A stretch of 64,000 nucleotides of DNA from Sumerlaeia bacterium (GTDB lineage: Bacteria > Sumerlaeota > Sumerlaeia > SLMS01 > JAHLLQ01): positions 96,001 through 160,000 of the forward strand of contig JAVJSW010000060.1 in NCBI GenBank assembly GCA_040219255.1, written 5' to 3'. Positions 43,319 through 49,125 of this stretch are shown here, one piece after another. The position numbers were made by a program, and so were the translations under genes. Under the pieces are notes generated by a model. It was given only the letters and a program-made list of their open reading frames with translations. It was not told the origin of the DNA and searched no databases. Every line of letters begins with the position of its first letter. Position 1 is the stretch's first letter.

Positions 43319-44515
43319 TCAATCCTCGGCCTTGCCGCCGCGGGCCATCAGGACCATGCGGGGCCAGAAGATTGCCAGCGTTTCCACCAAGTCCTTCTGG
43401 GCCTCCATCACTTCCTCGATGCGCTTATAGGCCTGCGGGGCTTCGTCCACGCCGGCGGCGAGGAGTTCGATGCCACGCTCGGCCAGGTAGGCGCGCATCG
43501 CCGAACCGGTGATGGTCTGGCGGGCGGCTTTACGGCTGTGGGCCCGGCCGGCGCCGTGGGCCGCCGAGCACAGCGACGCCGCGTTGCCACGGCCCCGCAC
43601 CACAAAGCCCGGGTCGCCCATGGAGCCGGGGATGACGCCCAGCACGCCCTCGCCCGCGGGGGTGGCGCCCTTGCGGTGAACGATCACTTCCTCGCCGTTG
43701 TGGATTTCCTTCCAGGCGAAGTTGTGATGGTTCTCGATCTGCAAGAGCGGCTTCAACCCCGCCGACTTCAGCACCTCGCGGTGGATGCAGTCGTGGTTGG
43801 CGGAGGCGTACTCGCCGGCCAGGTTCATGGACGCCCAATACTCCTGGCCCGCCGGGCTGTGCATCGACAGCCACGCTAGGTTGCGCGCCTGCGGAGGCAG
43901 CTCGGTCAGGTCCTTGGCCAGCCGCGAGTAGGTCTGGGCGATGTTCGCGCCCAGACCCCGCGAGCCCGAATGGCTCATCAGGGCGACGTACTCGCCGGGT
44001 TCGACGCCCAGGTCCGGGCTTTTGACCTCGAGCAGACCCCACTCGGCGAAGTGGTTCCCCGAGCCGGAGGTCCCGAGCTGGGCCCAGGCCTTGTCCTTCA
44101 GGTAGCCGATATGCGGCGGCACGGCGTCCCACGCCGGCGAGTCCATCACCGGGTGGCTGCGCTTCTCGTTCTTGCGGAACTCGCCGCCGACGCCAAAGCA
44201 GGTCTCGCGCGAAAGGGCGTTCTTCAGCTTGCCCTTGAAGCCCTCGTAGCGATCCGATGGCATGTCGGTGATCGAGAGCTTCATTCGGCAGGCGATATCG
44301 ACGCCCACGGCGTAGGGAATCACCGCGTCGCGCACGGCCAGCACGCCGCCGATGGGCAAGCCATAGCCCACGTGGCCGTCGGGCATCTGGGCCGCCGCCA
44401 CGGAAATCGGCAGGCGGCGCGCCACCTCGATCTGGTCCAGGGCACCCTGGTCAATCTGGTCCTGCCCCCACACCGCCAGCGGCACCGGGGCATCCATCAA
44501 TTTGAAAGCAGACAT
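43319..44515 (-). CDS. rtcB: RNA ligase RtcB family
   Basis: MPDGHVGYGLPIGG, GVDIAC, GTSGSGNHF, HSGSRG, NHHN, HRKGAT, HGAGR, DEAPQAYK. Confidence 0.95.
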   Translation of the reverse strand: MSAFKLMDAPVPLAVWGQDQIDQGALDQIEVARRLPISVAAAQMPDGHVGYGLPIGGVLAVRDAVIPYAVGVDIACRMKLSITDMPSDRYEGFKGKLKNALSRETCFGVGGEFRKNEKRSHPVMDSPAWDAVPPHIGYLKDKAWAQLGTSGSGNHFAEWGLLEVKSPDLGVEPGEYVALMSHSGSRGLGANIAQTYSRLAKDLTELPPQARNLAWLSMHSPAGQEYWASMNLAGEYASANHDCIHREVLKSAGLKPLLQIENHHNFAWKEIHNGEEVIVHRKGATPAGEGVLGVIPGSMGDPGFVVRGRGNAASLCSAAHGAGRAHSRKAARQTITGSAMRAYLAERGIELLAAGVDEAPQAYKRIEEVMEAQKDLVETLAIFWPRMVLMARGGKAED

Positions 44516-44550
44516 GATCGTCCTTCCTCATTTCGAAAACGGGAGAAAGT

Positions 44551-44650
44551 TCACGATGAACCGCACGCAAGAACCGGGCGCCTTGAGCGATCTCGCTCAG
44601 GCATCGGCGCATGCGGAATGATCGGCTGACGGGCGTTCAGGCCCAAGCCA
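44551..44650 (-). promoter_or_regulatory. Structured leader RNA between the uORF and rtcB
   Basis: Minus strand hairpins tgatggc-ttgggcctgaacgccc-gtca and ccgca..gcctgagcga-ga-tcgctcaaggc..tgcgg. Confidence 0.5.
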
Positions 44651-44686
44651 TCAGTTGTCGAAGTGTCTGGAAAAAAGAGCGGACAT
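44651..44686 (-). CDS. Putative leader peptide MSALFSRHFDN upstream of rtcB
   Basis: GAGGAGG Shine-Dalgarno (44694-44700) 7 nt before ATG 44686; 11 codons then TGA. Confidence 0.6.
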   Translation of the reverse strand: MSALFSRHFDN

Positions 44687-44875
44687 GTTGGGTCCTCCTC
44701 ATGCCGGGCAGCAGAGGGGCGCGAGCATGCACAGCGGGCGGCGGCGGGCAAGCTGAATCTTTGCGTCATTTTGGCGATTACGGCGAAACGCCATCGAACT
44801 CATTGACGGAGGCGCCCCCTTGCCTCACAAATGCCCACTCCCTACGACCGAATTCCGAGCGCGAGTCCCCCGACC

Positions 44876-48944: not shown

Positions 48945-49125
48945 GACAGGAGCAGAGAGGACAGAGGAATTCGCCACGGATGGGCACGGATAGGGGTTGG
49001 ATGTGTTTTTTTGCTTAAGACCTTCTTCGAGCGCCATTTCGTCGCTTGTTCATCGCTGCATCCGACTTCACTATCCGTGCCAATCCGTGGCGATTCTTCC
49101 CTCTGCGCAGCCTCCAACCTCCCTT
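48945..49125. repeat. Nested inverted repeats between divergent ydeP-like and fdhD genes
   Basis: tcgccacggatgggcacggata (48971-48992) vs tatccgtgccaatccgtggcga (49072-49093), one mismatch; outer gagagg/cctc-rich arms. Confidence 0.75.

Follow-up and report, generated by a model that had tools for sequence, protein, structure and literature searches.

The window analysed in this study is a stretch of 64,000 nucleotides from a Sumerlaeia bacterium. On its minus strand it carries an rtcB gene and, upstream of it, a leader with a short open reading frame (uORF) and several predicted hairpins (Table 1). As the radical-SAM gene upstream of rtcB is divergent and cysS downstream is convergent, rtcB stands without a co-oriented neighbour. 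The rtcB of the window is the sole RtcB match in the genome (G000), which is 92% complete. Alignment to solved RtcB structures revealed DxH, DxxC, NH, HxGSRG, HN and HGAGR in the window protein; these motifs, which we take to be the active-site motifs of RtcB, are invariant across 17 sequences. By name, the nearest proteins are from Candidatus Sumerlaeota; none of the proteins exceeds 67-68% identity, and no genome of the same genus is present among the 74 other genomes of the phylum. The protein falls short of the curated cut-offs of the RtcB2 models (143 bits for TIGR03073, where 272 are required) and shows 28% identity to an RtcB2; judged by its sequence, it belongs to a different RtcB clade from RtcB2/ArmZ. 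An earlier reading of the same DNA from its letters (hereafter the sequence-only reading) had found no rtcR or rtcA adjacent to rtcB. Our analysis agrees and extends this to the whole 92%-complete genome, in which neither RtcR (PF06956) nor RtcA (PF01137) was found, both being detected in the E. coli positive control. PrfH was not found over the cut-off in this genome or in the 75 genomes of the phylum. In Deinococcus, rtcB is listed as radiation-induced in the accessible part of one paper (PMC4007540).

Table 1. Features of the rtcB gene and its leader; positions are those of the window.
Feature	Position	Strand	Remarks
Candidate sigma70-type promoter	44724..44751	minus	-35 TTGCCC 44751-44746, 16-nt spacer, -10 CATGCT 44729-44724; putative
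Hairpin H0	44694..44719	minus	predicted; pairs the uORF SD; z -1.4
25-nt direct repeat, copy 1	44678..44702	minus	uORF start region
uORF SD, GAGGAGG	44700-44694	minus	7-nt spacer to the ATG at 44686
uORF	44651..44686	minus	MSALFSRHFDN, 11 sense codons and UGA (44653-44651); predicted from sequence
Pyrimidine tract and CAGACA within uORF	44664..44679	minus	predicted pairing with the rtcB SD or start-codon region
Hairpin H1	44619..44653	minus	predicted; uORF UGA in the 5' arm; z -1.7
Hairpin H2	44561..44616	minus	predicted; long stable stem; z = -3.6
Hairpin H3	44517..44557	minus	predicted; anti-SD 44549-44543 pairs with rtcB SD 44529-44523
25-nt direct repeat, copy 2	44507..44531	minus	rtcB start region
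rtcB	43319..44515	minus	398 aa, PF01139; short form without the ~70-aa N-terminal extension

Analysis of the leader bore out two points of the sequence-only reading, namely that a GAGGAGG SD lies 7 nt before a short uORF (11 codons and a UGA) and that the uORF and RtcB begin alike, both frames opening with M-S-A. A spacer of 135 nt separates the uORF stop from the rtcB ATG (44515). The uORF is in frame with rtcB, and three in-frame UGA stops lie between the two, on account of which UGA read-through from the uORF into rtcB was rejected. The pattern GAGGAGG-N5-10-ATG is expected 0.86 times per 64-kb window on both strands and was seen twice; simple arithmetic therefore gives a probability of about 0.002 for its occurrence by chance on this strand of the ~315-nt intergenic stretch. 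The looser GGAGG version occurs at chance level window-wide (14 seen against 15.3 expected) and gives about 0.03 for the leader. The candidate promoter is weak and falls below the threshold of the promoter scanner, which found none; 25 of 38 ungapped columns are identical between it and the TTGACA-type sequence before rtcB of a relative, G007. Two further small frames were observed on the same strand: one of 21 codons (44702-44637) opens immediately ahead of the uORF SD and closes within the loop of H1, and an inner ATG overlapping the uORF stop (TGATG) opens a frame of four codons and is a possible re-initiation site.

Comparison of the start regions of the uORF and rtcB revealed that the two copies of the 25-nt repeat are identical at 19 of 25 positions (76%), with a spacing of 171. 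The pattern GAGGA-N6-10-ATGTCNGC, which was drawn post hoc, has nine matches in the genome, two of them here and 171 nt apart. A local duplication of the rtcB start region is the probable origin of the leader. An N-terminal extension of ~70 aa, presumably resembling the tail of CCA-adding enzymes, is present in many RtcB relatives and absent from many others, whose starts differ; its consensus in the long forms (P0002-P0053) begins MxIxGKDLxxxGWxPGP. The uORF sits where the long-form rtcB of G007 starts after the similar promoter and, when read through, has W at position 13, as have 14 of 18 aligned long forms. The simplest history would be that the start region was duplicated as the extension was lost, and that the leftover uORF was then recruited. 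Descent of the read-through frame from a decayed extension is not supported by hhalign, which gave its likeness to the extension a probability of 0.2%, the best match lying elsewhere.

The same observations bear on a reading in which the leader has no sensing role. In this reading, a dead upstream start was left behind when the start region was duplicated or the ancestral ~70-aa extension decayed, and the hairpins set a constant low level of expression. Start-region duplication alone could account for the SD, the ATG and M-S-A. The repeat, the two pattern matches out of nine, the in-frame uORF at the place of the G007 start, the W at position 13 and the lack of leader conservation described below all favour such a relic; the hhalign result, the perfect SD and strain changes that mostly retain pairing (below) speak against it, and an origin by duplication is compatible with a present function. 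We consider it unlikely that the leader is a relic of this kind.

Irregular starts were also observed at other rtcB loci. In L009 (G049, ~1225-1500) a change of frame at six consecutive A separates the extension from the RtcB core, which may be decay, a frameshift signal or an assembly error. L013 (G016, ~1380-1500) has an SD-like site and an out-of-frame ATG before a short-form rtcB, and the first eight codons from this ATG resemble the start of the extension. In L005 and L007, rtcB directly follows a short gene that may encode a Uma2-type nuclease.

Concerning the structure of the leader, two hairpins had been claimed to fill the 135 nt before rtcB, with the UGA stop as part of the first. 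The spacer length and the place of the stop, in H1 (44653-44619), are as claimed; the hairpins are three (H1, H2 and H3), and it is H3, concealing the rtcB SD, that had been overlooked. Folding z-scores, all for stretches picked after inspection, were -3.0 for the 135-nt spacer, -1.7 to -1.9 for the whole 241-nt leader and -0.02 for H3 folded alone, which is no stabler than its shuffles. The lower stem of H3 consists of AUCGU/ACGAU, and the 3' arm of H1 carries CGAUCAU, a sequence that recurs at the rtcB start. This sharing suggests, as far as the models go, the layout of a switch between 1:2 with 3:4 pairing and 2:3 pairing. In the whole-leader fold, CAGAC of the uORF is paired with 44513-44509 (the AUG region) in both the MFE and the centroid structure, and in the MFE of another fold uORF codons 1-6 pair with the rtcB SD and AUG. 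The rtcB SD was paired in every fold computed. Neither this pairing of the uORF with the rtcB start nor the duplicated start region had been noticed in the sequence-only reading.

A ribosome on the uORF was mimicked in silico by 5' truncations of the leader. Truncations at 44646, 44643, 44640 and 44634, which remove the 5' arm of H1, resulted in formation of CGAU/AUCG and opening of the lower stem of H3. All truncations retain the SD stem of seven pairs in their MFE structures, and three of them re-form a helix of four pairs beside it; for these two reasons no clean ON state was computed. Overall, the models suggest that the leader may act as a structural switch.

The pairing of the rtcB SD and AUG in all folds points to control at the level of translation. 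Alternatively, the same ribosome sensor could have transcription termination as its output, Rho-dependent or at a weak terminator, which would bring it nearer to the PA5471.1 model. The available descriptions of PA5471.1 present it as a transcription attenuator, the SD hairpin stays unreleased in our folds, and six U follow a weak hairpin that covers the start of the uORF (z +0.4); against this, no terminator-like site was found on the minus strand between 42800 and 45000, and the paired SD and AUG argue for translational control. Termination is in our judgement quite unlikely to be the output. A further alternative is a structured leader regulated through a protein, ribonuclease cleavage or feedback from RtcB, with the uORF incidental. 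H2, the most stable element and one kept through nine strain changes, fits this alternative, but two folds show direct pairing between the uORF and the rtcB start, none of the five Rfam matches at E up to 5 falls in the leader, and no second copy of the leader was found in the genome. Regulation independent of the uORF appears improbable. A repeat or mobile hairpin was likewise rejected, as no significant second copy was found in the genome or in phages. Elsewhere in the window (48945-49114, plus strand), an imperfect long hairpin lies between divergent fdhF-like and fdhD genes and has a weak, probably spurious Rfam microRNA match.

Variation in the leader was assessed with a near-identical strain, represented by contigs X1 and X2 from two samples (runs) of one study, which agree in their overlap. 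X1 spans 44022-44684 with 16 differences and X2 spans 44429-44752 with 17 differences; the evidence comprises one allele from one study in low-depth contigs (depths 3-5), and pairs and registers were assigned by hand. A total of 13 changes were found in the spacer against three in 494 nt of rtcB. The spacer changes are confined to 44581-44604 and 44627-44636, and the 22 nt separating these clusters, with partners outside, are unchanged. The uORF (36 nt), both SDs and 44516-44580 (the H3 region) are without change; for the uORF this is uninformative because rtcB itself varies at only 0.6%. By hand assignment, three spacer changes lie in loops or bulges (44636, 44628 and 44591), two interconvert wobble and standard pairs (44630 and 44597), 44599 with 44584 form a double change from U-A to C-G, four shift the register (44604, 44603, 44583 and 44581) and two break a pair (44627 and 44596). 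The four changes in H1 are thus a loop, a bulge, a G.U to A-U conversion and one broken pair, and the nine in the distal part of H2 leave nine pairs against ten (by hand). In H0, the change at 44705 converts G.U to A-U (by hand) and that at 44689 falls in the SD spacer. The variant disrupts the 4-pair helix that had re-formed beside the SD in the truncations. Strain changes that mostly preserve the hairpins point to selection on structure, as seen in one allele with hand-chosen registers. X2 ceases to match at 44752, directly upstream of the candidate -35 box; since the strain contigs stop matching either side of 44753-44821, strains may differ in the DNA that separates the divergent promoters.

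The conservation that the sequence-only reading had proposed to test for was not found in the loci and genomes searched. Of 110 loci, two contain GACAACTGA, that of the window and another in which it is far from the rtcB start, and GAYAAYTGA occurs in 12 of the 110, none at the leader position except the window's own. A covariance model of the leader, built from a single sequence, matched the window alone and found no homologue in the 74 other phylum genomes; at 185 of 190 rtcB loci (leaving out the window's own, three lacking upstream DNA and one likely duplicate) its best match had E 0.26 or worse. When the leader was compared with the 75 phylum genomes by BLAST, the search gave, beyond the window, only two short chance matches of 22-23 nt in unrelated context (G071 and G012). 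A 13/14 match to upstream DNA of G001 was rejected, as it falls in the apparent promoter of G001. Reading by eye of 24 phylum loci and L119, with only 100-150 nt of upstream DNA for some long-form loci, found no SD, uORF and spacer like those of the window, and nothing comparable was found in 12 Bacteroidota and 10 other loci; L010 has an upstream frame of 34 codons and L006 one of seven codons, neither with a clear SD. A nucleotide motif placed after SD and ATG had 16 matches in this genome and was too loose, with matches in 74 of 75 genomes; those of L219 and L244 are due to chance. Because a fast-changing leader could be missed at 67-68% protein identity, the leader is best called lineage-specific so far.

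Leaders of a similar kind were found before rtcB2 genes of proteobacteria, whose upstream regions were read by eye and whose uORFs were translated by hand. An SD and a uORF of 11-16 codons, unannotated, precede rtcB2 at 9/9 loci read (L205, L206, L207, L208, L249 and L251-L254). In E. coli K-12 the uORF ahead of ykfJ (rtcB2)-prfH is 15 codons long and its SD is perfect (L205:1227-1287). The uORFs of the others have 15 codons in Proteus, 14 in Ralstonia sp., 13 in a Klebsiella plasmid, 13 in the viral contig L249, 16 in Tritonibacter, 14 in Methylosinus, 14 in Rhizobium and 11 in Microbulbifer. All nine contain a pyrimidine tract in the second half of the uORF. Their peptides are mutually unrelated, lack a common ending and are also unrelated to that of the window. 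A hand count over the stop-anchored last 25 nt gave 16 for the window against E. coli, 15 for the window against Proteus and 17 for E. coli against Proteus. The motif underlying these counts, TTTSCRGR, was widened to admit the window; it is present in 5/9 rtcB2 leaders and in none of the four most distant, held-out ones, and genomes commonly contain it. A peptide motif taken from the E. coli leader, R-x-F-x-[DN]-stop, was rejected; it occurs at 31 of 205 loci, in leaders only in the window's own copies and E. coli, the match of L050 lies inside its coding extension, and the other eight rtcB2 leaders are without it. In four rtcB2 leaders a U-rich run comes after a helix that begins within the uORF, and the window has no such run. 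The actinobacterial rtcB2 of Nonomuraea (L209, ~390-400) has a frame of three codons without an SD, possibly a leaderless uORF. No uORF leader was visible at five loci of other RtcB types, and two samples, of 71 and 51 genomes, yielded no further rtcB2 leaders from other phyla at a threshold of E 1e-75. The leaders of the window and of rtcB2 are read, on the layout of their sequences, as sharing a design, homology not being implied. No published description of the rtcB2 uORF leader (ykfJ-type) was found in the literature searched, and the main text of PMC9223846 on rtcB2-prfH contains neither 'leader' nor 'upstream'. The uORF of E. coli rtcB2 offers a testable counterpart of PA5471.1.

Taken together, the leader is proposed to be a lineage-specific sensor of ribosome stalling, a leader-peptide switch acting on rtcB translation; this is the best of the readings considered, and we give it about even odds. 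In the absence of a ribosome, the first half of the uORF or H3 is predicted to cover the rtcB SD and AUG, the OFF state. A ribosome lingering on the last uORF codons or the UGA would cover the 5' arm of H1, the freed CGAU would pair with AUCG of the H3 lower stem, and the SD hairpin would be shortened from ~12 to 7 pairs, so that rtcB could initiate, the ON state. As to the cue, damage to ribosomes or tRNAs in general is more likely than a specific arrest peptide; the arrest signal at FDN-UGA favoured by the sequence-only reading is unsupported, because the rtcB2 leader peptides share no ending. The sensor draws its support from the SD and ATG that are unlikely by chance, the structured spacer, the CGAU/AUCG pairing on removal of the 5' arm of H1, the strain changes, the 9/9 rtcB2 leaders, the precedent of PA5471.1-armZ and the failure to find RtcR, RtcA or PrfH in the genome; the missing leader homologues, the SD stem that persists in the truncations, the weak z-scores of H3 and the whole leader, the single strain allele and the start-region duplication count against it. 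The broader idea of an RtcR-independent, ribosome-coupled control of rtcB thus survives as plausible on the anatomy of the leader, the strain variant and the rtcB2 leaders; the conservation test set by the sequence-only reading itself fails.

A more specific version, that the leader senses anticodon-nuclease attack directly, appears improbable. Four of the last five uORF codons are Arg AGA, His CAC, Asp GAC and Asn AAC, and according to the accessible part of one paper the tRNAs reading these codons are cut by colicin D and colicin E5 to leave cyclic-phosphate ends of a type that RtcB joins (PMC6277466). A ribosome stalled at codons 8-11 would unzip H1. If this were true, a ligase that repairs tRNAs would be induced when those tRNAs are lost, and the switch responsible would derive from a duplicated copy of the ligase gene's own start. 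The codon pattern was noticed post hoc and has a chance of ~0.01 by rough arithmetic, no homologue of the leader was found on which to check it, and the nine rtcB2 leaders have no such ending, all of which count against this version. If the stall sensor in its general form is real, armZ-type control would have been reached separately by another RtcB clade, distant from the first and belonging to a phylum that has been little studied. This would suggest that RNA repair genes have repeatedly come under leader-peptide stall sensing in place of RtcR, a reach that is limited by the one locus and one strain variant.

Comparison with known systems places the leader among attenuators of several kinds. 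In translational attenuators of the ermC/cat type, a leader peptide is followed by segments that pair either 1:2 and 3:4 or 2:3, the last hairpin hiding the SD of the regulated gene. The rtcB SD of the window is likewise predicted to be hidden in a hairpin (weak alone); unlike in the ermC/cat type, the regulated gene is a repair ligase and no clean ON fold was computed. In E. coli, rtcBA is under the control of RtcR. The stress control of an RtcB ligase proposed here resembles this, and differs from it in that the genome gave no match to RtcR or RtcA. The rtcR-rtcBA operon is named in the accessible part of PMC6277466. The nearest counterpart is that of P. aeruginosa, where the leader peptide PA5471.1 controls the RtcB-like armZ (PA5471), which lies next to prfH (PA5470); in the available parts of two papers, transcription attenuation is proposed, with induction by drugs that target the ribosome, by a premature stop and by loss of the CCA-adding enzyme (PMC12057347, PMC13041342). 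Hence the mode of control that the sequence-only reading had put forward is of a kind already known, as far as these parts go. Beyond PA5471.1, no description of an rtcB or rtcB2 leader was found in the literature searched, subscription papers lying outside the search. Compared by description only, the two systems have in common that a gene of the RtcB family is preceded by alternative hairpins and a short uORF, and in sequence the window has a short uORF with its own SD and an RtcB-family gene as in the PA5471.1/armZ type. The differences are that the window rtcB is of another RtcB clade, is not an RtcB2/ArmZ orthologue followed by prfH, and has no terminator-like site on its strand, where the PA5471.1/armZ type has a transcription terminator that forms once the uORF has been fully translated. 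Most likely, the leader of the window works like the armZ leader, yet differs from it in prfH and the terminator.
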